Of a stretch of DNA of 64,000 bases, positions 454 to 42,459 are shown piece after piece (the first letter of the stretch is position 1; the number at the start of each line of letters is the position of its first letter). Under the pieces are notes generated by a model. It searched no databases. It saw nothing but the letters and a program-made list of their open reading frames with translations, and was not told the origin of the DNA. A program made the position numbers and the translations under genes. Source of the stretch: a virus. Its lineage: Duplodnaviria; Caudoviricetes. Where the stretch lies: IMG/VR virus record IMGVR_UViG_3300044719_000253, positions 162,012 to 226,011 of that record; one strand, written 5' to 3'.

Positions 454-3400
454 ATCATCCCGGTCAGAACCGGGAGCGAGCAATACAGCAGTTGACAGCA
501 GCGGTGCGCTACCCATCGTTTCTTTGTTATAGCGGCGTGTCACCCCGCGCAGCGACGTGAACTGCGGGTCGGCGCTGGTGTAGGTGTTAATCGCCACATC
601 CGAACTGTCGACGGTGTCGGTCGAAATCAAACCCATGTCGTTCTTGTGGTACGTCCGGGTTTCTTTCGTCATGGTGCGGCTATTGCGACCACCGGTGCCG
701 TTATACGTCACCGCTTCCTGTTCCTTCAGATTCTGGATCGGGTTGATCTCATTGGTCTGGGCTTTGGAAGCATCGGTCTGAATCGCCGTAAACACCGCAA
801 ACGGGTCCATGTTCAGTGGTGAACGCGATTTACCGGCACTGGCGTTGTGACGACGAATCGCCGTGACCATTTCCGAGTACACTGCTCCGGCCATCCGCTC
901 ATAACCCCGCAAGCGCATGTAGGCACCATCGAATTCATCCGGATGGTCATCGCGCACCAGCATGGTGCCGGCTCGGATCAACAATGCGCGCATGTCGGTG
1001 GGTTCATTCATCTCCACCAGAATATCGTGCGTGATCGGGTCGATGAACATTTGGTAGAACAAGTCCATCTCACGGATGTAACGTACCCCCAATCCATCGG
1101 CTTCCAGCACGTTCAGGTACACCTCTTTGTTATTAAACAGGTGTACATTGTAACGGCGGATGTGACGGTGGTATTCGTTAAAGCCACCCAAGAACAGTCC
1201 GGTGAGGTGATCGTTCTTATCAAAGATGATGGTCTCATCGTTGAACATCACCGGCTCTTCATTTAGACCCAGATCGAGACGGGTCCCTGCTGGGACACGG
1301 CGTACCTTGGACTTGAGCAGCGCCAGCATCGGTTCCAACCCCATCTCGTAGGCCAGAATCACCCCGACCGGAATCGATGCACCGCCGAGTTTCATCACCG
1401 CCACATCGACTGGCGCTTTCCGCCGATCCAACCCCACCAGTTCCTCAAACGACGGGAATTGGTACACGGCTGGTTCCCCCGTACGGCTGGGGCCGACGAT
1501 CGCCACGGTCGAGGATTTACCGATCAACACATAGTGCGTGCCCATGGTCGACTTACCAGCAATGATGGCGCCGTTCTGTTCGTACTTGGCCAGCGCCTCT
1601 TTGCCAAACAGCTCTTCCCGTTTGGTGTGATCGAACGACATGTTGAATGTCAGTTGACCGAGATCACGCGGATAAGCTTGTGGTGTCAGGGTAAAGCTGT
1701 TGAAGGCCGACGCGATCACCGAATACACCCGCGGCACGCTGACTTCGCTGTCCGACATATCGCCGGTGTGACCGTTGGTGATGGTTGGATCGGCATCGTC
1801 CAGCATCTTGGCCATCAGCCCGTTGGTCAACCACATGGCGTAGTTGTTGACTTTCTTTTCACTGCGACGGATGAAGGCTTTGCCGTAATAGCTCGTGAGT
1901 GCCACGGTATCCGGAGCGGTTTTACGGATCGGCAGATCGATCCGCTGTTTGCGCAGTGAGTACGACACGCCGTTGGCCAGGTACGTGCCATCTTCGCCCA
2001 CTACCGGCAGTTTGAAGCGCACAGTCGAAGCCGTACCATCCGTCGGCAACAGACGCACCGTGTAGATGTTGTACGCCCCCATCAGGTCTTCCACTGGCTC
2101 CACGTGATACTCAGTAACGCCATATCCGGCTTGGGCGAAACACATCACCATCGAGGCCACATCGCGTTGCATCACTTCGCTGGTATAACGCCGATCGAAA
2201 TCGAGCAGTGAGGACTTCAGCATCGACTTGTCCGGCACCGTAGGGATATCCGGAATCGCCGTGGATTCATTGACTTTGAGCGTCTCCGGAGGAATCGTGA
2301 TGTATTCCGCCACCGTCATCTTCGGATCGGGGGAAGGCATGGTCTTGTAAGCACTCGCCACCCGTTCGTAGTTACGATACTGCGCCGCCGTAATCGCCCC
2401 CGACAACATCCGGGCCTTGGCCACGCGCAACAGAGCTTCATCATGCGGTAAGCGCTTCAGGGGCGGGATCTCGGCTTCCACCAGTTGCGGGGTGTCGATC
2501 GCGGCTTGACGCTTTTCCAGCAGACTTTGTTCGGTCGCGGTATCGTCTACCGGCTCTGGCGTCAAAACCTTTTCCATCTCGGCCAATTCGGCATTGATGG
2601 TTTCGTCCAACTTCTCATCCACATGCACCGTATCGGCCGTGTCATCCGGTTTATCGTCCACTGGGCTACCCAGTTCTGCCTTCAGGGTCGCCGTCGGGAC
2701 CTTAGCGATACCCGTGGTCGGATCCACCACCGCCGGACCATTGCCGACCTTGGTGACGCTGGCCAATTCTTTCTTGAGGTCTTCCCGATCGTCCGCATCG
2801 AAAACTTGTTTCTCATGGGCATCGAGCTGATCGACTGGCGCTGCCGAGCGCAGCTGCGTGACCGACATGAAGAAACGCAGAATACGATTCTGGAAACGCG
2901 GGGGGTCGATCAGGTTCGGTTTGACGACTTCGTTCGGGAATAGTTCATCTTGGGTCGGTTTGCGCCAGGCGTCCAACATCCCGAGATTGACCGTGGTCCA
3001 TTGTCCTGATTCCAGGAACACCAGGTTAATCCGCGACAGGTATTGGCGCGGCACTAAACCCAACATGGATTGTTTGCGGTTAGCGCCGAACCATTTCCAC
3101 ACTTCGCCCAAGAACAGATGTTCATTGGAGAAGAACATGCGCATCAGACGCTGCACTGGTTTGCGGGGATCCATCGCTTCGTACTGTTGCAAGATCGAGC
3201 GCGGTGGCAAGACTTGCGGCAGATGCATCACCACAAATTGCGGCCGGTCCGTGATTTGGGCCAGACGGGCGATCTCGGTCCATTGGGTGCGTTCGATGTT
3301 GTACCATTCCAGATACTGGTTCATCGGGCCACGCGGGTAACGCACCAGGTGCGGCAGCATGCCGTAGTTATACACCAGCAGGCTGCTGGCGTCCGCCAAC

Positions 3401-3783
3401 ACTCGATCATCGACCGCATTACGGAAACGGCGATAGTGTTGGTGGTACTGCCGAATCACCGTGCCCGGTTGCACTGCTTGTTTGGTGGGTGTACCCAGAA
3501 TCCCCGGAGCCATGTTCAACACGTGATGCACCCAGATGTTGCGGGCCTGGGCTTTTTGCAAGACCTTGTCATCTTTCATGATGGCGGCTGAAAAGCCTTG
3601 CAACACCACATCCGAATCCGACGGACCGTACGCGGTTGGGCTCAAGTGAGCCATGTGCACAATGGCGCGCCGGGGCAGTTGAAACCGTTCCAGACGCCCG
3701 AACTTCGGCGTCATCAGTTGTTCAACGCGGCGCAAGCCATAGGTGCGATAAAAGACATTAAAATCGAGCAGCATAAAGCTCAA
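454..3783 (-). CDS. Virion RNA polymerase beta subunit, exon 1 (phiKZ gp178-like)
   Basis: 1110 codons up to DRDD. Beta-like motifs LRKQRID, LTSYYGK, NPIQNLKEQEAVTYNGTGGR and GLISTDTVDSSDVAIN. Adjacent to the beta-prime gene and tape measure as in phiKZ gp178-181. The ORF-track end at 436 is inside the intron. Confidence 0.88.
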
Positions 3784-5399
3784 TCTCCAGTGAGGTTATG
3801 GAGCACCAGTTCCACGGTGTGCACCGAGGTGCTGGAAATAAAACGACCATCGGTCCCGACATACGCGCGGCGTTTGGTGAAGTACTCTGCCACTTCGGCA
3901 CGGGCTTCGTCCGAGTACGCGATATTACAGTTCATCATGTCGCCATCGAAGTCACCACCGAGTTTCGCCAGGCGAGTCGGGTGTGGGGACATTGACTTCA
4001 TGTACGGACCCGGAATCGGGAATTCCAAGGCGATATGGCTATCGTCCATCGGGGCCCAGTTACGGTCCAATTCACGGCGCCGTTCCGCCACCGTGGTGGT
4101 ACGGACATACAGATTGGTGGGATAAATCGACCCCACCCCCGTGATCGGATAACGGGCGACGGAGGCCGGGTAAGTATTCCAGACACGGTAACCCGACAGA
4201 TAGATCAATTCGCAGAACGTGAGCGGATACACGTCTTCGCGTTTCCGGCTGGGCGGCAACTCATCGATGTCATTGAAAATCTTGAAGGTGCCATCCGGGC
4301 CTTTATAAATCAAGCCCAAATAATGCCCTTCGATTTCCATCGGCAGATCCCGCAATGACTCTTCCCGGAATGCATTGATGACTTTCTCCAACCCTTCGTT
4401 GGTTTGGAAGCGATCGTAGTATTCGTTCTTGAGCGGAATGGCTTTGCGCTTGAGGGTCTTCTTGTCGACCAGATACGCTGGTTGGCTGATATCCGGGAAC
4501 ACTTCTTTGAGCCAGCCATGCTTGAGTTGATACAGGGTGATGGGCAACATTCCTTTGATCAGTTGAAATAAACCCACCGCGGTGTCATTAAAGCCCGCAC
4601 TACCGTGCTCACCCAAATATTGGGTTTCCACAGGTAGGGCGGTGATCACGTTACCGGTGCCGTTCATCACACGACGGCTGGCCCATTTTCCTTGGATCAG
4701 TTTGTTCTTACCGTAGATCAGCCGTTCAAACAGTTCGTAGATTTGCACGAACGTAGTTTGCAGCTTAAAGCGTGCCCGGTCGATCAGTTCCGGATTGGAG
4801 CGAATCGCGATATCCGACAAGGTGTTGGCCACCGCCAGCAGTTGACGGTACATCGGGTTGATCTCGTCTTCGCGAGGACGACCATCGGCACCGATCTCGA
4901 CATCGCGTAAACCCGCTGGCAACACCAGCACTTTACTGGTCATGGCCACGGCTTTGTACTTCTCGATCAAACGAATCGCCAGATCCCGTTTGTCCGAATT
5001 GGTTTTCGAAAAATCGATTTGGTCCCAATACTGACTGAAGTAATGGTAACCGGTTTCGCCATTGACCGCGTCTGAACGTTCGAAATCCTTTTTCTCCGGA
5101 TTCCACAACGCGTATTCGTTGCCGGACATAATCCCGCCATACAGGCGCTTGAGCGAAATCAGGGTATTATAAATGATCGGGTGAAATACCCCGACTTTGA
5201 TATCGATGTAGGCATAGCGGCGGCACCGCACATCGTCACCGACCCGACCGAAGATTCGAGTCGAGAATAACCCCTCAGGATGAAAGTTGTGGGTGATACC
5301 ATCGTACATCGCCAACGAGGTAATGGGAAACAGCCCTGCCAGCTTGGCAGGAGTTAACGCCAAAATCTGGACGTTGAAGGGGACCATCGATTTTTGCAT
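3780..5399 (-). CDS. Virion RNA polymerase beta-prime subunit with catalytic motif (phiKZ gp180-like)
   Basis: Catalytic LGGDFDGD motif, EGLFSTRIFG and VLVLPAGLRD. 4-bp overlap with the beta gene. Confidence 0.92.
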   Translation of the reverse strand: MQKSMVPFNVQILALTPAKLAGLFPITSLAMYDGITHNFHPEGLFSTRIFGRVGDDVRCRRYAYIDIKVGVFHPIIYNTLISLKRLYGGIMSGNEYALWNPEKKDFERSDAVNGETGYHYFSQYWDQIDFSKTNSDKRDLAIRLIEKYKAVAMTSKVLVLPAGLRDVEIGADGRPREDEINPMYRQLLAVANTLSDIAIRSNPELIDRARFKLQTTFVQIYELFERLIYGKNKLIQGKWASRRVMNGTGNVITALPVETQYLGEHGSAGFNDTAVGLFQLIKGMLPITLYQLKHGWLKEVFPDISQPAYLVDKKTLKRKAIPLKNEYYDRFQTNEGLEKVINAFREESLRDLPMEIEGHYLGLIYKGPDGTFKIFNDIDELPPSRKREDVYPLTFCELIYLSGYRVWNTYPASVARYPITGVGSIYPTNLYVRTTTVAERRRELDRNWAPMDDSHIALEFPIPGPYMKSMSPHPTRLAKLGGDFDGDMMNCNIAYSDEARAEVAEYFTKRRAYVGTDGRFISSTSVHTVELVLHNLTGD

Positions 5400-35115: not shown

Positions 35116-36348
35116 ATGACCACCTTAGCTAACCTCACTTACGCCTTTGATCCCACGGGTCAACTCAGCGCCAACCGTATCACGGGTGAGCTGCAAGCAC
35201 TCACGGGCGCGGGTGCCGCCTACACGTTTGTGATTCCCCGCCTCGCACCGTTTTTCGGCGAAAGTATCTCGCTCAGTTTCAAAGATTTGCAGGGCAATAT
35301 TCGACCGATGGTGCTGGGGGTAGATTACTATTTATCGCACACCTTCATCGGCGCGTCACGCGCCTGCAGTAAACCGGTATATGGTTCGATCACGATCCTC
35401 AATACCGAATTGGTGGGCACCCTGATTTTCGCCCCGTACCAAATCGTTGGGGGTGAATGGGCGCTCGATGCGGCCACCATCACGGCGATTCTGGCTGATC
35501 AAATCCATAACCCGCGCACCACCAGCTGGGATATGGTCGCGGGTTATCCGTCGATCTTCCCGCCAACTCCGCATGCCTGGAATCTGCAAGACATGGTCGG
35601 GATGAGCGCGATCGTGGCCGCCCTCAACCAGATCACCGACGCGATTCTGACCCAAGCCAGCAGCACCCTGACCACGCACGTCAATGACCATAACAACCCA
35701 CACGGGGTGACCGCCGATCAAATCGGCGCCATGACGTCAGGCCAAGTCGCGATGGCGATCCAAAGTGCACTGGTGGGGGTGGCGTCAAATACCGACAAGG
35801 TCCCCGAAGGTGATGTCAATAAGTACTTCACTGAAGCGCGGGTTTTGGCAACACGGCTGGCTAACCTTCAGACTCTGACCGCCCAAAACCTGGCCGAAGG
35901 TGATACGGTGTTGACCGCACTGGAGAAACTGCAAGGTCAGTGTCAAGCGCTGCTGGATGCGCTCGGTAAAAAGGCCAATAGCGCACGACCTGCTTTCAGT
36001 GGCCTGGGCTCGCAAAACACGGTCGCAATCGACATGACCACCACCCTCGCCATCGATATCTCGCTGAGCGAAGCGTTTATCGTGAATATCAAGGGCAATG
36101 GCGCGATCGGTTTTAACACCAATAGCGTCGGTGACATGACTGGCCGTCTGGTCGAATTCGCCGTCACCACGGTCAACGACAATAGCGGAAACAGTTACGC
36201 CATCGCGTGGCCGTCGAATGTCAAGTGGGTCGATGGTGCACCCCCTCCCCGTTCCACCGCCGCTGGTGCCAAAGATATCTGGTACTTCGTCTCGGATGAC
36301 AACATGGTCACGTGGACTGGTTCGCTGTCCAACGCTAACCCGCGCTAA
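35116..36348 (+). CDS. Tail fibre base/adaptor protein (phiKZ gp145/146-like N-terminus)
   Basis: N-term YAFDPTG...NRITGE...VIPRLAPFF, HVNDHNNPHGVTADQIGA fibre repeat, C-term IAWPSNVKWVDGAPPPRS fibre domain. Confidence 0.75.
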   Translation: MTTLANLTYAFDPTGQLSANRITGELQALTGAGAAYTFVIPRLAPFFGESISLSFKDLQGNIRPMVLGVDYYLSHTFIGASRACSKPVYGSITILNTELVGTLIFAPYQIVGGEWALDAATITAILADQIHNPRTTSWDMVAGYPSIFPPTPHAWNLQDMVGMSAIVAALNQITDAILTQASSTLTTHVNDHNNPHGVTADQIGAMTSGQVAMAIQSALVGVASNTDKVPEGDVNKYFTEARVLATRLANLQTLTAQNLAEGDTVLTALEKLQGQCQALLDALGKKANSARPAFSGLGSQNTVAIDMTTTLAIDISLSEAFIVNIKGNGAIGFNTNSVGDMTGRLVEFAVTTVNDNSGNSYAIAWPSNVKWVDGAPPPRSTAAGAKDIWYFVSDDNMVTWTGSLSNANPR

Positions 36349-36366: not shown

Positions 36367-38616
36367 ATGAGTCGTCTTACTAAACAACTCAGGCGAGAAA
36401 AGACCAATGCCAGGATCGTTCCGAATACCTCGGTGTTTAATGCACCCGGTACGGTGGTCCTGCCATATGGTAAATTTCACGTCATCGTGTCGGGCACTGG
36501 GTCACCCGGCAGTGCGCCGGTACCTGGGAATGCCCAGTACAATCCACCCACCCCGGGCAATATCGCCGGTTATAATCCGGTCACCCCCGGTAACATCAGT
36601 GGCTATAATCCAGTGTCACCCGGGAATCTGACGTATAACCCCACGACGCCGGGGAATGCCAACTATAACCCGACGGTGCCTGGAAATGTGGCTTCCTACA
36701 ATCCCCCGACCGGTGGCACTGTGGCGGGTTATAACCCCGTGGTACCGGGTTACAGCTATACCAACCCCGGCACATATACCCCGGGTAACTATGTGCCGGC
36801 GTCGTATACACCGGGTAACACGTCGTATAATCCCAACAGCTATACGCCAGGGAACTTGGTGCCGGCCAGCTATACCCCGGGTAACCCCTACACCAACCCA
36901 CCGACCTTCGTACCCGGCAACACGTATACCAATCCACCGTCATATGTGCCGGGCAACACCAATCCGGCGTCGTACAGCGAGTTGGATATCGCGATGACGC
37001 AAAACTGTCCGGTTGGCTGGGACACCGGGTACGATTACAACGATCTGGGTAAACCCTTCAAGGTGTGTACCACGTATAGCCCGGGAACCACCAACCCCGG
37101 GACGTACACGCCAGGGAATACGACGTCCAACCCAGGTTACACCACACCCGGCAACAGTGCCACCAATCCCGGTTCGTATTCGCCGGCGTATTACAACCCG
37201 CCGACATACACCGCAGGGACGGCATACACCAATCCGGGTTCGTATTCGCCCGCCTACACCAACCCAGCGTCGTACGTACCCGGCAACACGGGTTCGAATC
37301 CGACTACGGGCGGTACGGCTAACTATAATCCGACAGTGCCGGGCAATGCCAACTATAATCCACCCAGCGGTGGCACGGTAGCGGGCTACAACCCGGTAGT
37401 ACCTGGCAATGTGGTTACCAACCCGGGCACCCCGCCATCCGGTGGCAATCCGGTGTACAACCCGACTACGGGGGGTACCGCGAATTATAACCCCCCAACC
37501 GGTGGTACGGCGTACTACAATCCGCCAACGCCAGGCAATATCGCGTATAACCCGCCGACCCCTGGGAATGTAGCGAACTACAATGCACCTACCGGTGGCA
37601 ATCTGGCCAACTATAATCCACCCAGCCCAGGGAATTATGCGGGTACCAACCCCGCCACACCAGGTAACGTGTCTGGCTATAACCCGGTACAACCGGGCAA
37701 TGTGTCCGGTTATAACCCGCCGACGCCGGGTAACTATGCGGGTACCAACCCCGTAGTCCCAGGTAACATCAGTGGATATAATCCGCCGACGCCGGGTAAC
37801 AGCTACACGGTACCCGGGAACTATGTGCCAGCTTCGTACACCCCCGGCAACACCAACCCGGGCTCGTATGCGCCGGGTAACCCCGTGACCTATTCACCCA
37901 CCTACACGCCGGGTAACGTGAATACGGACCCGCAGTATGCAGAAGTGAATATGGGCACGCCCTGCCCAGCAGGTTGGGCATTTGCGTGGACCAATCCCCC
38001 CAACTATGAGGGCAACCCGAACTACGTTCAAACCACCGAATGTATTCTGGATGCCGGCACCACCAATCCGGGGACGTACACGCCAGGTTACACCAGCTAC
38101 AATACGTACAATGCGCCGTCATATGTGCCCGGGAATACCAACCCCGGTAACTACACACCAGCGTATACCAACCCAAGTAATACCGCATACAACCCTACGG
38201 CCGATGGCACGGCGAATTACAATCCACCGACGGGCGGCAATGCGAGTTATAACCCGGCAACCCCGGGTAACGCAACATATAACCCAGCCACACCTGGCAA
38301 CGCCAATTATAATCCAACGACCCCTGGCACGGCGTATTACAACCCGACCACACCGGGGACGGCAAATTACAATCCGGTTACCCCAGGTAACGCCAACTAT
38401 AACCCCACGACGCCGGGGAATGCCATCTATAATCCGACCACGCCCGGAGCGGCTTCGGCACCGTTCCAAGCGTTGGGGGTCACGTTCCCCGGCGCCCCGG
38501 CGGCGACACCTGGCAATTATGTGGCAGAGCATGTGATCAATGTGGCGTATTCCGCCAATGGTGTACCGGTAACTGTGGGACCCGGTGCCCAGGTGATTAT
38601 CAAACAACAGTTCTAA
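36367..38616 (+). CDS. 749-aa Pro/Asn/Tyr/Gly/Thr repeat protein, putative fibre or appendage subunit
   Basis: About 30 (N/T)xx(x)YNPxxPG units and about 20 (S/T)YxPG units, two CPxGW...C inserts, and short non-repetitive termini. Confidence 0.85.
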   Translation: MSRLTKQLRREKTNARIVPNTSVFNAPGTVVLPYGKFHVIVSGTGSPGSAPVPGNAQYNPPTPGNIAGYNPVTPGNISGYNPVSPGNLTYNPTTPGNANYNPTVPGNVASYNPPTGGTVAGYNPVVPGYSYTNPGTYTPGNYVPASYTPGNTSYNPNSYTPGNLVPASYTPGNPYTNPPTFVPGNTYTNPPSYVPGNTNPASYSELDIAMTQNCPVGWDTGYDYNDLGKPFKVCTTYSPGTTNPGTYTPGNTTSNPGYTTPGNSATNPGSYSPAYYNPPTYTAGTAYTNPGSYSPAYTNPASYVPGNTGSNPTTGGTANYNPTVPGNANYNPPSGGTVAGYNPVVPGNVVTNPGTPPSGGNPVYNPTTGGTANYNPPTGGTAYYNPPTPGNIAYNPPTPGNVANYNAPTGGNLANYNPPSPGNYAGTNPATPGNVSGYNPVQPGNVSGYNPPTPGNYAGTNPVVPGNISGYNPPTPGNSYTVPGNYVPASYTPGNTNPGSYAPGNPVTYSPTYTPGNVNTDPQYAEVNMGTPCPAGWAFAWTNPPNYEGNPNYVQTTECILDAGTTNPGTYTPGYTSYNTYNAPSYVPGNTNPGNYTPAYTNPSNTAYNPTADGTANYNPPTGGNASYNPATPGNATYNPATPGNANYNPTTPGTAYYNPTTPGTANYNPVTPGNANYNPTTPGNAIYNPTTPGAASAPFQALGVTFPGAPAATPGNYVAEHVINVAYSANGVPVTVGPGAQVIIKQQF
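36529..38448 (+). repeat. Coding tandem repeats of 27-36 nt, synonymously diverged
   Basis: Recurrent AAY CCN NNN NNN CCN GGN units visible in the DNA. Confidence 0.9.
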
Positions 38617-38633: not shown

Positions 38634-39251
38634 ATGAACCACCCCGTCCGTTACACGATTCCGCAGCGTACATTCGAATACAAATCGTACGTAGAACTTT
38701 TCAACGCGTTCAACAAAGAAGAATGTGCGCGTATCAAAGATCTGGGCGATCTGATGGTGTTCCAAACCGGTTTGGTCGGCAACAATGTGACTGATACGGT
38801 GGCGCGCGATTCAAAGATTGCTTGGATCAATGATGACCCGGCCCTGCCGGCACTGGACGAGCGCCGTCAACTGATCGGTAAGATGGCGGACATCGCCGGG
38901 ATGGTCAATCGTGACAAGTTCCAGATGCTGATCGACAGTTTCTACCCCCTGCAATTTACCAAGTACGGCCTGAACCAGCATTATGATTGGCACGTCGATG
39001 CCCATGAAAATCTGGAAACCACCGAACACCGCAAGCTGTCCGCCGTCCTGATGCTCACCGGACCAGACGAGTATGAAGGTGGTGAACTCGAACTGAACAT
39101 CGGTGGCAACCCCGATAATACCGTGCTGTTGAAGCCGGAAGCCGGTACCGTGGTGTTCTTCTATTCGTTCGTGGCCCACCGGGTGCGTCCGGTCACGAGC
39201 GGTAACCGCGCCTCGATCGTCATGTGGGCCCTGGGCCCGAAGATTTGCTAA
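38634..39251 (+). CDS. 2OG-Fe(II) dioxygenase (prolyl hydroxylase-like, P4Hc/PiuC group)
   Basis: YDWHVD (HxD), RKLS, YEGGEL, AHRVRPVTSGNRAS (distal His and 2OG-binding Arg). Confidence 0.9.
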   Translation: MNHPVRYTIPQRTFEYKSYVELFNAFNKEECARIKDLGDLMVFQTGLVGNNVTDTVARDSKIAWINDDPALPALDERRQLIGKMADIAGMVNRDKFQMLIDSFYPLQFTKYGLNQHYDWHVDAHENLETTEHRKLSAVLMLTGPDEYEGGELELNIGGNPDNTVLLKPEAGTVVFFYSFVAHRVRPVTSGNRASIVMWALGPKIC

Positions 39252-39261
39252 GGGTAGAAGG

Positions 39262-40074
39262 TTGATTATGCTGAACCGTTTGATTCGTTTTTTATTGACT
39301 GAAAGCCGTCTGAGTGAAATGGGGTTGCGTGAAGTCACCCAGGAAGACTTGGACGCGCTGTTGCCGGTGATCGAGTTCTCGATCGAGCCACAATGGAATG
39401 GGGTGCTCAAGCCCCCCGTGCCGGCATATAAGCACATCGCGGACTGGTGGAAGAAGATTCCGGCGCAGATGCCACGTCAAGGCAATGCCCCGCGGGATCA
39501 ATTCGGCGACGTGGCGATGACGGCGAAAAGCTGCATCCCGCTGCTCGATGGCATGGGATTGGGGTACACCATGACTTTAGCCGCCGATGTGCATGTGCGC
39601 ACCGACCCGGAAGGCAAGTTCTTAGAAGTGCGCTCGGGCCCGGCCTTCAATGCCGCGTCAACCCACTCGAAGGATCAGTTGGGGAATCACTACCCGACTT
39701 ATCCGATGCCGGCGATCAAGTTCCACAATCCGTGGGTGATCCGCACCCGTCCCGGGTACTCGACGCTGTTCATTCCACCCCTGAACCGTGTGGAAGAAAC
39801 CCGGTTCCAGTGCTTGGGTGCCGTGGTCGACACTGACACCTACGATAAGCAAGTTAACTTCCCGGGCCTGTGGTTTGCCAAGGGTTACGATGACATGGTG
39901 GCCGCAGGAACCCCCTTGGTCACCGCCATTCCGTTTAAACGGGCGGATGTGCCACGGGAACTGTTGTTGCGTAACATGACCGCGGCTGAGCAATTCCGCA
40001 TCGAGCAAATGGCCAAGATCCAAAACTCGCGGCAAGGGATGTACACCCGTGAGCTGCGGGAGGATCGTCGATGA
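39262..40074 (+). CDS. DUF6065-like / dUTPase-like-fold protein
   Basis: TAKSCIPLLDGM..GY, KFHNPWVIRTRPGYSTLF, VVDTDTY...VNFP and GTPLVTAIPFKR. Confidence 0.6.
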   Translation: MIMLNRLIRFLLTESRLSEMGLREVTQEDLDALLPVIEFSIEPQWNGVLKPPVPAYKHIADWWKKIPAQMPRQGNAPRDQFGDVAMTAKSCIPLLDGMGLGYTMTLAADVHVRTDPEGKFLEVRSGPAFNAASTHSKDQLGNHYPTYPMPAIKFHNPWVIRTRPGYSTLFIPPLNRVEETRFQCLGAVVDTDTYDKQVNFPGLWFAKGYDDMVAAGTPLVTAIPFKRADVPRELLLRNMTAAEQFRIEQMAKIQNSRQGMYTRELREDRR

Positions 40075-40847
40075 TTACCCGTCTGCTCGATGCTGGGATT
40101 CGCCAACTGGGGAAATTGAATCACTGGTTGCGTCGAATCGGCAGTGATTCGGTGATTCGCTTCAAGAGCACCGTGGGGGCGTATCACTACATCAATCCGG
40201 TGGTGGCAGCCAAAGAGATCAAACCGGACTGGCTCAAGGTACAAATCGAACGCGCCAAGAAAGAACGCAAATCGGTCAAGTTCGTGCGTTGCCCCGGGAT
40301 GCATGATTATTCCCAGGAAGGCTTCCTGATCCGCGCTCACACCGATATCCATATCAAGGCGAACAGTGCGGGGGTGGTAGTCAGTACGCCGAATGTGGGT
40401 GAACAGCGGCTGGCGCCGGTGGAGATGGATGTGGAAGTCATCGATGGTTTGCCGCCGGTGGATGGCGTCAAGCTCAAGGTGTTTAAGGTGCCCCTACCCT
40501 GGGGCATTTTTACGGAACCGGGTCACTCCGTCCATCTGTTGCCCGCCCTGATGCATTTCCCCCATCTGGACAAGATCTTCGTGTACCCGGGCACGGTGGA
40601 CTACGAGGAATTCCATACGGCCAATCTGATCATCACGGCGATTCGCCCCTGTGAGATCGTGATCAAGGCGGGCGATGTGATCCTGCAAGCCTTGCCGTTT
40701 AAACGGGTAGGTTACCATGGTGTTTGTGGTAAAGCCACGCAACAGGAAGCTGACCGCCAACACTTCGGTTTCTTGTCGCGCACCATGGGTTACTACCGCC
40801 GTATGTTCCACTTTAAGAAGGTTTATACCAGCGAGGTGCAAGAATGA
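40071..40847 (+). CDS. Second DUF6065-like paralog
   Basis: RCPGMHDY..EGF, KVPLPWGIFTEPGHSVHLLP, GTVDY and GDVILQALPFKR. Coupled by 4-bp overlaps on both sides. Confidence 0.6.
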   Translation: MITRLLDAGIRQLGKLNHWLRRIGSDSVIRFKSTVGAYHYINPVVAAKEIKPDWLKVQIERAKKERKSVKFVRCPGMHDYSQEGFLIRAHTDIHIKANSAGVVVSTPNVGEQRLAPVEMDVEVIDGLPPVDGVKLKVFKVPLPWGIFTEPGHSVHLLPALMHFPHLDKIFVYPGTVDYEEFHTANLIITAIRPCEIVIKAGDVILQALPFKRVGYHGVCGKATQQEADRQHFGFLSRTMGYYRRMFHFKKVYTSEVQE

Positions 40848-41314
40848 GCAGCATTACAGGGTTGGTTTACCTGATTAACAAACAAACCAAAACGATCCTA
40901 TACGCCGGAGAAGTACCGGAAGTGTACGGCAACATCACCGGTCTGACGAATGTGGATTATGCCGTGCTGCAAGACTTGCATGGCACCTGGGCCTCTCCGG
41001 AATATCTCGATCTCGGGTTCTTGACGGAAGCTGATGCACTGGCGTTGGGGGTATCCCAAATGGCCATCGGGATTGCCCGTGCCGGTGCGTGGGAACTCAA
41101 GTGGAACAGCTTGGATGCCACCCGCAGCGAACTGATCGATGACCAACGCTGGCGTGTGGACCGCTACAACGATGAAACGCTGATGAATTGGCCGCACACC
41201 GAAGACATCACCCCGGTGCTGACGTACATCCAAGCGCTGCGCGATTTGCCGACCACTTACCCGGATCCCTACAACATCGTATGGCCAACGGTGCCGCCCC
41301 TACCTGGCGGTTGA
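40844..41314 (+). CDS. Tail fibre assembly chaperone (Tfa / Phage_tail_APC-like)
   Basis: C-terminal RSELI...YIQALRDLP..YPDPYNIVWPTVP. Confidence 0.8.
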   Translation: MSSITGLVYLINKQTKTILYAGEVPEVYGNITGLTNVDYAVLQDLHGTWASPEYLDLGFLTEADALALGVSQMAIGIARAGAWELKWNSLDATRSELIDDQRWRVDRYNDETLMNWPHTEDITPVLTYIQALRDLPTTYPDPYNIVWPTVPPLPGG

Positions 41315-41394: not shown

Positions 41395-42459
41395 ATGTCT
41401 TTAGTTCCAGTCAAATACCCGCTTGATTTGACGGGTGCGGCTGTCAGTAACCGCGTCACCAACGAATTGCATGTGTTGCCTGGCACTAATATTCGGATAT
41501 TGGTGCCGGACTACGGTGCATTTTTCTCGGACAGCGTGGCAGTGCGTGATGCCGCCACTAACCGCACGCTGGTAAAAGGGGTGGATTACTACCCCAGCCT
41601 GCTCTACACCGACCCTACGTCGCGCACTGGCCGGGATATCCACCAGATCCTCGTGATCGTCGATGCCACGTGTGGCGCCAATGTGATGTTCGATGCCCAA
41701 ATGTTGGGCGGCGAATACAGTTTCAGCTATGACGCGATCGTGCAGCTGGTGAAGAACTTGGGGCTCGACAACCGCGCCATCCAGTTTAACAACATCATCG
41801 GCAAACCCGACGGTTTCCCGCCCGCTCCGCACTTGCACGATATCGGCGACGTGTACGGTTTTGAATACGTGGCAGCGGCCATCGACCGCATGCGTGACGC
41901 AGTCCTGCTGGGTTCAGCCGCTGGCCAGAAGGGTATGTACGATTACCTGAACAACGAACTGGCGCAGATGCAGTCGGTGATCGATGCGGTGGTGCAAGCT
42001 CGTTCGACTGCCCAATCGATCATCAACACTCTGGGTTATACTCCATTCGATGCCCGCGGCGGTACGATGGGAGGTAAGCTGGACGTCAACGGTTTGATGT
42101 ATCAAAAGGCGGGTTATCGCGAGACCGCCAAAACGTTGGATGCCACCACCACAACCACGGTACTGAATCTGGCATCGGCCAACCGCTTCGTGGTGAACCT
42201 GAAAGCTAACACCCTGTTCAAACTGGATCCGTCCTTGGTGACGGGGATCGCCGGCACCGATTTCTTGCGTTGCAGTCTGCTCCTTAAGAATGATGCCACG
42301 GGTAATCGCACTATCGGTTTCGTCTCGACCGTGATCTGGCCCGGTAAAACCATGCCGCCGCGGGCAGCAGCGGCCAACGCGATTAACGAGTACGAGTTCA
42401 CCAGTTATGACGGTGGTGTGACGTGGAACGGTAAACTGGTGGCAGCTGATCTGGGTTAA
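41395..42459 (+). CDS. Second tail fibre base/adaptor protein, paralog of 35116-36348
   Basis: YPLDLTG..SNRVTNE...LVPDYGAFF, FPPAPHLH (compare FPPTPHAW), C-term VIWPGKTMPPRA...YEFTSYDGGVTWNG. Confidence 0.75.
   Translation: MSLVPVKYPLDLTGAAVSNRVTNELHVLPGTNIRILVPDYGAFFSDSVAVRDAATNRTLVKGVDYYPSLLYTDPTSRTGRDIHQILVIVDATCGANVMFDAQMLGGEYSFSYDAIVQLVKNLGLDNRAIQFNNIIGKPDGFPPAPHLHDIGDVYGFEYVAAAIDRMRDAVLLGSAAGQKGMYDYLNNELAQMQSVIDAVVQARSTAQSIINTLGYTPFDARGGTMGGKLDVNGLMYQKAGYRETAKTLDATTTTTVLNLASANRFVVNLKANTLFKLDPSLVTGIAGTDFLRCSLLLKNDATGNRTIGFVSTVIWPGKTMPPRAAAANAINEYEFTSYDGGVTWNGKLVAADLG

Follow-up and report, generated by a model that had tools for sequence, protein, structure and literature searches.

Which task could a giant phage assign to a protein that consists almost entirely of uncharged repeats, is interrupted by two short cysteine-flanked islands, and is encoded directly behind a tail-fibre gene? 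This question is raised by the open reading frame at 36367-38616 (plus strand) of the window analysed here, a stretch of 64,000 nucleotides that forms the final 64 kb of a 226-kb virus record in IMG/VR (IMGVR_UViG_3300044719_000253, positions 162,012 to 226,011). The frame is open throughout, is preceded by AAAGG 9 nt before the ATG, and encodes a protein of 749 residues, P0001. We hold with moderate confidence that P0001 is an adhesin-like protein associated with a tail fibre, which would be composed of a clasp domain, two stalks of paired arms and two exchangeable tips, and which probably undergoes enzymatic maturation.

Between short N- and C-terminal parts, P0001 is made of two classes of repeat unit, A (YNP type) and B ((S/T)YxPG type), arranged as A7-B-tip1-B-A15-B-tip2-B-A9. 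This layout had been claimed in a preliminary description of the stretch and is borne out exactly by the positions of units and cysteines. Along the plus strand, the N-terminal part (residues 1-50, 36367-36516) leads into a first run of seven YNP units of 10-11 residues (51-124, 36517-36738) and then into arm B1, which consists of (S/T)YxPGN and TNP units (125-200, 36739-36966). Tip1 (201-235, 36967-37071; C214 to C234, beginning CPVGW) is followed by arm B2 (236-312, 37072-37302), the middle A run of 15 units (313-473, 37303-37785) and arm B3 (474-516, 37786-37914). Behind tip2 (517-565, 37915-38061; C533 to C559, beginning CPAGW) come arm B4 (566-607, 38062-38187), the last A run of nine YNP units (608-690, 38188-38436) and the C-terminal part (691-749, 38437-38613). 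By motif, seven YN(P/A)-type units of 10-11 residues have their ends at residues 58-122 and nine at 608-688, residues 320-471 hold 12 YNP units and 3 TNP variants, making 15, and the (S/T)YxPG and TNPG units occupy 125-200, 236-312, 474-516 and 566-607. The tips as first delimited, 36976-37068 and 37933-38052, fall within our re-measured limits, and their loops do differ behind the CPVGW and CPAGW starts.

Each repeat unit of P0001 contains a Pro-Gly-Asn and an Asn-Pro turn motif and a stretch of 3-4 residues up to a tyrosine, and the self-similarity of the protein has its maxima at offsets of 10, 20 and 22 residues. Pro, Asn, Thr, Gly and Tyr together account for 69% of the residues (Gly alone for 12.7%, one per unit), and the four cysteines of the tips are the only ones in the protein. 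The 556 residues of the arms include 48 Pro-Gly and 49 Asn-Pro pairs and a single charged residue, in agreement with the near absence of charge described before. At the DNA level, the gene contains no exact repeat of 30 nt or more, and Tandem Repeats Finder returned weak arrays only (69-77% matches). Where two units share an amino acid, the codon is the same in 38-39% of the pairs, compared with the 40% predicted by random sampling of the codon usage of this gene. Because their codons are randomised, the repeats must be old and maintained at the protein level, as the preliminary description had argued from their synonymous scrambling.

Iterated profile searches of metagenomic protein collections, seeded with P0001 (E ≤ 1e-3), retrieved a family of 191 representative clusters, found here only in uncultured phages; the best match was P0002 (E 5e-85). 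Both the N-terminal part of about 50 residues and the C-terminal part of about 58 residues are present in 100 retrieved proteins of 176-529 residues. Family members mostly carry one tip, often of the CPxGW...C type, and two- and three-tip forms exist. Minimal members have 2-3 units out, a short turn or tip and 2-3 units back; P0105, with 178 residues, has 3 + 3 units of two classes. Contigs in IMG/VR hold full-length orthologues of P0001 with 54-82% identity: L003 is 82% identical, L004 and L005 are two-tip orthologues, and L006, of 967 residues, has three tips. The L005 genome also encodes a single-tip paralogue, L007, and so does the genome of P0001 itself, in the form of a 296-residue protein (L012:1495-2406, minus strand; G000:C1:64499-65383).

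The lengths of the arms, within P0001 and across this family, support the idea that the chain runs out and back twice. In P0001 the B arms measure 76 and 77 residues around tip1, and 43 and 42 residues around tip2. Counted from cysteine to cysteine, with a0, a1 and a2 the stretches before, between and after the two pairs, the closure sum a0 + a2 - a1 is 166 + 133 - 299 = 0. It is 4 in L003, 11 in L005 and 11 in a 920-residue relative with a longer second hairpin, and a0 + a2 equals a1 within 0-11 residues in four of the five two-tip proteins. A single mirror-symmetric hairpin carrying the two tips as paired bulges (a0 = a2) was rejected, being off by 29-59 residues. The closure arithmetic fits two side-by-side hairpins and a straight rod with a central clasp alike. 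Members with a single tip are balanced too. In 24 members with exactly one cysteine pair, the stretches on its two sides, of 21 to 154 residues, correlate in length (r = 0.85). The tip is central in the 42 proteins for which a single island was detected: the net out-minus-back length divided by the length of the middle region (h/M) is -0.01 ± 0.16, against a standard deviation of 0.58 under random tip placement, and the tip stays central across middle regions of 76-336 residues. Automatic island calling put many proteins wrongly in a two-island class, which was not used as a whole. The B zones around 25 tips correlate with r = 0.76 in unit counts and with r = 0.32 in residue length, the latter under a crude boundary rule.

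A subfamily with unlike arms bears most directly on how this balance arises. Units of the YNIVPGNATGT kind make up its first arm, and units of the NGPQNFNAPT kind its second. Nine variants, 395-701 residues long, have the following unit counts in the two arms: 13/14, 18/19, 22/22, 24/25, 24/25, 27/28, 27/28, 27/29 and 28/28 (r = 0.993), and the arm lengths go from 143/151 to 294/291 residues. Since the repeat classes of the two arms differ, these lock-step counts cannot stem from duplication within one array; a change in one arm must therefore be matched in the other. Such matching suggests that the arms pair in space. By eye, we saw no mirror match of 10- with 11-residue units between the paired arms of P0001.

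AlphaFold2 was run with family alignments on monomers of P0001 and of P0034, a single-tip member of 297 residues. In the P0001 model, the N- and C-terminal parts join into one domain with a predicted local distance difference test (pLDDT) of 90-98 over residues of about 20-60 and 680-749 (91-98 for residues 21-50 and 95-98 in the C-terminal part, which like its partner is kept family-wide). The first outgoing and the last returning unit lie within this confident domain, with short β bridges there, and both halves of P0034 superpose in structural alignments on single small β-sandwich domains. These predictions support the earlier suggestion that the two short ends are the halves of one β domain, the clasp. 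A wide VIA-align search against PDB representatives gave as the best match of the clasp 7ypx, a fibre of cyanophage Pam3 (Z 5.3, root-mean-square deviation 2.5 Å over 70 residues), followed by C1q/TNF-type jelly rolls (Z 4.0-4.5), all of these Z scores being at the tool's level of common arrangements and too weak to name a fold. Foldseek searches of the clasp model against AlphaFold DB clusters and BFVD, a set of predicted viral protein structures, returned nothing at E ≤ 1e-3; BFVD matches to phage proteins with Gly-rich domains appeared only at E about 2-4. In the same models, tip1 is predicted as a β hairpin (219-224/230-235, pLDDT 60-67), tip2 has short predicted strands (537-539/559-561, pLDDT 49-72), and the tip of P0034 is predicted as a β hairpin with a pLDDT of about 82.

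The tips are the most variable parts of the protein between orthologues. Compared with L003, L004, L005 and L006, tip1 is 46, 34, 40 and 49% identical and tip2 78, 12, 22 and 16%, against 47-100% for the arms and 61-90% for the end domains of the same orthologues. The tip variability claimed at the outset thus holds: leaving aside tip2 of L003, the closest relative, tip identities are 12-49%, compared with 47-77% in the arms beside them. In L004 a cysteine-free island takes the place of tip2, and in L005 and L006 other cysteine-closed tips do. Within one phage the situation is different. Tip1 is 81% identical over 32 residues to the tip of the 296-residue paralogue of the same genome, at a nucleotide identity of only 70%; the codon is the same in only 10 of 26 identical residues, synonymous sites being saturated, and identity between the end domains of P0001 and the paralogue falls to 48% and 36%. 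Because codons and end domains have diverged to this extent, we attribute the shared tip to conservation at the protein level and not to recent gene conversion. The tips of L005 (tip2) and L007 stand in the same relation. Retention of a tip within one phage together with divergence between phages is the pattern that would be expected of a ligand-specific surface, and together with the gene context and the variability it suggests that the tips bind a receptor. As for the cysteines, the middle region holds none in 46 of 100 proteins, two in 24 and four in 26, and the remaining proteins have 1, 1, 5 and 6; their number is even in 51 of the 54 members that have any. This parity suggests that C214-C234 and C533-C559 may form disulfides.

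The surroundings of the gene are those of a tail-fibre module. The window carries split multisubunit RNA polymerase β genes together with baseplate and virion genes, which identifies the uncultured phage as a phiKZ-like giant phage. Upstream of P0001 lies a tail-fibre gene of 410 codons (35116-36348, plus strand, like all genes of this cluster), which belongs to PHROG families of tail fibre and virion structural proteins and whose N-terminal half matches jumbo-phage fibre proteins. Downstream follow, with tight spacing and ribosome-binding sites, a 2-oxoglutarate (2OG)-Fe(II) oxygenase of the PKHD/PiuC-like type (38634-39251; PF13640, E 7e-20; nearest solved structure 3dkq, E 2e-11), two DUF6065-like paralogues of 270 and 258 residues (39262-40847; phrog_7084, a weak PF19541 match, conserved motifs in the alignment), a Phage_tail_APC gene similar to tail assembly chaperones (40844-41314; PF16778, scoring 29.1 bits where the cut-off is 26.6) and a second fibre gene that shares the N- and C-terminal domains of the first (41395-42459; phrog_2163, phrog_9017). 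Of 55 family genes, 54 have as their immediate upstream neighbour a gene with this fibre C-terminal domain at its end. In the upstream fibre the domain (about 130 residues, 35956-36345) is 36% identical to gp023 of Escherichia phage muut (L104), a 157-residue 'tail fiber protein' that stands alone in the baseplate cluster of phi92-like coliphages and is matched by 341 phage records. As this relative is a stand-alone protein of a baseplate cluster, the C-terminal domain of the fibre would suit an adaptor or docking platform.

The enzyme genes travel with the repeat protein. An IMG/VR scan with a DUF6065 alignment found 543 loci, the best 80 of which were examined: a family member was present in all 74 that had enough upstream sequence, and a 2OG oxygenase in 77 of the 80. 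The full form of the cassette consists of the repeat protein, then the 2OG oxygenase, DUF6065 and a DUF6065 paralogue, and it is the form found in the window; other backbones, among them that of an SU10-like podophage, carry the cassette as well. In one relative (L020:11383-17046), the cassette is followed by a PF11397 N-acetylglucosamine (GlcNAc) transferase (E 2e-29) and two more genes, encoding a 628-residue fusion of Glyco_transf_25, a PLOD-type glycosyltransferase and a 2OG oxygenase, and a weakly collagen-like protein of 219 residues. Taken together, these genes add up to a fuller complement of modification enzymes of the collagen type within a fibre module. The PF11397 family includes the Skp1 hydroxyproline GlcNAc transferase.

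From these data the following arrangement can be proposed. The first 50 or so and the last 60 or so residues would co-fold into the clasp, a small β domain, which the chain would leave and re-enter twice. Each excursion would be a long hairpin, whose arms, made of units of about 10 residues with Pro-Gly-Asn and aromatic-Asn motifs, would pair unit for unit, and which would be capped by a small variable tip with its flanking cysteine pair. The most likely place for the clasp to dock is the conserved C-terminal domain of the upstream fibre protein, the arms would serve as stiff uncharged stalks, and the tips as the host-contact surfaces that set specificity. Maturation is probably carried out by the downstream 2OG oxygenase and the DUF6065 pair, by hydroxylation of Pro or Asn in the repeats, aided by the tail assembly chaperone; gene linkage and the 48 Pro-Gly sites of the arms point to such a modification. 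It is also possible, if rather doubtful at present, that the arms represent a new rod-forming fold, zipped unit by unit and stable only after hydroxylation (in some phages glycosylation) by the co-encoded enzymes. Such a rod would be the phage counterpart of collagen and extensin maturation, and the stalk a length-adjustable, recombination-proof scaffold for one to three exchangeable host-range tip cassettes.

Several observations weigh against this adhesin-like arrangement. AlphaFold2 gives the arms of both models a pLDDT of about 40 and predicts neither secondary structure nor pairing. The preliminary description had combined a chain that runs out and back twice with antiparallel polyproline II or β ribbons; the out-and-back part is supported by the family comparison, and the polyproline II or β part finds no support in these models. 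It had also named predicted disorder without pairing as a result that would speak against it, and the low pLDDT of the arms formally touches this point; the evidence is weak, given a shallow alignment of the repeats, a monomer-only run and possible modification. Closure is missed by 54 residues in one two-tip relative and by 66-92 residues in the three-tip L006, and tandem duplication of a symmetric module would yield a0 + a2 = a1 without any structural constraint. P0001 does contain a duplication: residues 305-355 are a direct, non-mirrored copy of residues 85-136 (79% identity over 52 residues; 36619-36774 and 37279-37431 in the window, including the A-to-B transition). As the copy is direct and not mirrored, the A units do not encode the direction of the arm. 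It ends at the irregular segment TNPGTPPSGGNP (residues 351-362, 37417-37452), which breaks the repeat register and at which the alignment with L006 places the extra hairpin of that protein; the segment may be a hinge between the two hairpins or the scar of a lost third one. Tips without cysteines are common, as the 46 members lacking them show. On the side of the enzymes, the 80 DUF6065 loci include many near-duplicates, and no enzyme genes adjoin single-tip paralogues. DUF6065-like proteins also occur in Halorubrum virus HSTV-2 (L011, NC_020159.1 28132-29001; about 31% identical to the product of 39262-40074) and in 48 other haloarchaeal virus records, where they adjoin thymidylate synthase and DNA polymerase and not fibre genes, a context more in keeping with a nucleotide-related role than with tailoring of proteins. 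Finally, megablast and tblastn gave no credible match to the family in 50,697 phage records when queried with the region, with P0001 as a whole, with its C-terminal 74 residues and with one distant member, a search in which the low-complexity filter probably masks the repeats.

Three other explanations share part of this evidence. One is that the arms are flexible, disordered tethers that hang two knobs from a fibre-bound domain, their symmetry being a by-product of repeat duplication. The low pLDDT of all arms and the lack of predicted secondary structure agree with it, and so do the uncharged composition rich in P, N, T, G and S, typical of disordered linkers, the direct internal duplication, and the fact that duplication of a module alone can produce the closure sum. 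We nevertheless consider it unlikely, as duplication cannot give lock-step counts in arms of different repeat classes and the tip remains central over middle lengths of 76-336 residues, and as the units, in which one aromatic residue is strictly retained, are kept at the protein level despite randomised codons. Another explanation keeps the arms ordered and has their units coil into β-roll or solenoid columns with two units per turn, as RTX 9-mers do, each hairpin then being two side-by-side columns and not a ribbon or a polyproline II pair. The return of the chain would still need equal arm lengths, each unit does contain two turn motifs and a short stretch ending in Tyr, and the self-similarity peaks at 10, 20 and 22 would suit it. 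AlphaFold2, however, usually spots solenoids from few sequences and predicts none here, a super-period of two units is absent from the sequence, and with one charged residue the arms lack acidic calcium ligands; we regard columns of this kind as improbable. An RTX-type β roll proper was rejected, since units of 10-11 residues without acidic Ca ligands are not GGxGxD nonapeptides.

According to the remaining explanation, the repeat protein does not recognise the host but helps to assemble or brace the fibre next to it, as a ruler, a sheath or a chaperone that is perhaps not part of the virion, and its tips vary through co-evolution with that fibre. Its gene always comes after a fibre gene with chaperone-like genes alongside, some T-even gp38 proteins serve in assembly only, and P0001 is known here from genes alone and not from particles. 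Yet the tips are hypervariable, unlike the conserved partner domain in the upstream fibre, and one tip is kept in two proteins of one phage behind two different fibres, which fits a shared external ligand better. There is thus little probability, in our view, that P0001 acts in assembly alone, and a host-contacting adhesin remains the reading that we prefer.

Among known systems, P0001 appears in its logic closest to the gp38 adhesins, in which conserved low-complexity motifs alternate with hypervariable host-recognition segments that are shuffled as modules (PMC12032242). As in the gp38 of Straboviridae (S16, T2, PP01), the gene lies just downstream of a distal fibre gene, the conserved N- and C-termini form one domain, and conserved repeats flank variable tips that are exchanged, in the P0001 family, among paralogues and phages. 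By sequence and composition P0001 does not belong to gp38: it has no sequence match to it in Pfam, PHROG or PDB, it has one Gly per 10-residue unit and not five glycine-rich motifs, its arms measure 125-150 residues and, modelled at a pLDDT of about 40, would differ from the compact polyglycine-II sandwich, the family has large tips, one to three in number, where gp38 has four short loops, and P0001 has a dedicated cassette of oxygenase and DUF6065 genes. Comparable is the needle domain of gp37 at the tip of the T4 long tail fibre, a receptor-binding fibre end in which the chain reaches the distal tip and then folds back. It differs in being an interwoven trimer held by His-bound iron, without 10-residue Pro/Asn repeats, a clasp of N- and C-termini or several hairpins per chain. 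A PF13640 oxygenase next to a protein with so many Pro-Gly sites in its arms recalls viral and bacterial prolyl 4-hydroxylase systems whose substrates are Pro-rich or collagen-like (the enzyme of PBCV-1; collagen), and the additional PF11397 and PLOD-type transferases of L020 extend the likeness; the nearest solved oxygenases, however, are PKHD/PiuC hydroxylases and not the PBCV-1 enzyme. P0001 itself was rejected as a collagen-like protein: it has no Gly-X-Y triplet, its period is 10-11 residues, the autocorrelation of Gly reaches 0.24 at lag 10 and only -0.14 at lag 3, and there is no match to the Pfam Collagen model.

P0001 gave no match in Pfam or PHROGs, and none at E 10 in a profile search of PDB sequences. 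Pfam searches at E 10 with the end parts and with minimal members of 176-187 residues returned noise only and no Gly-rich domain model. The ESM Atlas held nothing usable for P0034 or the DUF6065 protein, and no paper on the repeat family was found in the literature on DUF6065, PF11397 and links between hydroxylases and fibres. Clasp proteins with YNP-repeat hairpins thus appear to form a large, widespread and uncharacterised family, and the best-supported description of P0001 is that of a new variant of a phage host-recognition module. Such modules are the phage parts most wanted for reading and re-targeting, and this repeat family is as yet unnamed, with its partner enzyme cassette in at least 543 viral contigs. 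The family provides a sequence rule for specificity loops, namely tips between symmetric arms, and natural variants in which the number of tips rises from one to three. P0001 is also a defined candidate substrate for phage 2OG oxygenases and DUF6065 proteins, and a promising candidate for an appendage of a new type that recognises the host and is matured chemically; if the arms do form a new rod of paired repeats, with a length governed by equal numbers of units, it would be of interest to protein designers.

A few observations concern further members of the family. The single-tip paralogue in the genome of P0001 sits between a fibre gene of 475 codons with the same C-terminal domain and a chaperone-like Phage_tail_APC+DUF4376 gene, with no oxygenase gene nearby. 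In the window, the second fibre gene (41395-42459) is not followed by a gene for a repeat protein; its counterparts in the relatives L028 and L029 precede a second family member, of 313 and 715 residues respectively. The 920-residue two-tip relative is likewise encoded in L029 (IMGVR_UViG_3300028588_000807, 2236-4995). Its hairpins are unequal in length and its two tips nearly identical, both starting with CPVGW and ending with GHPFKVC.

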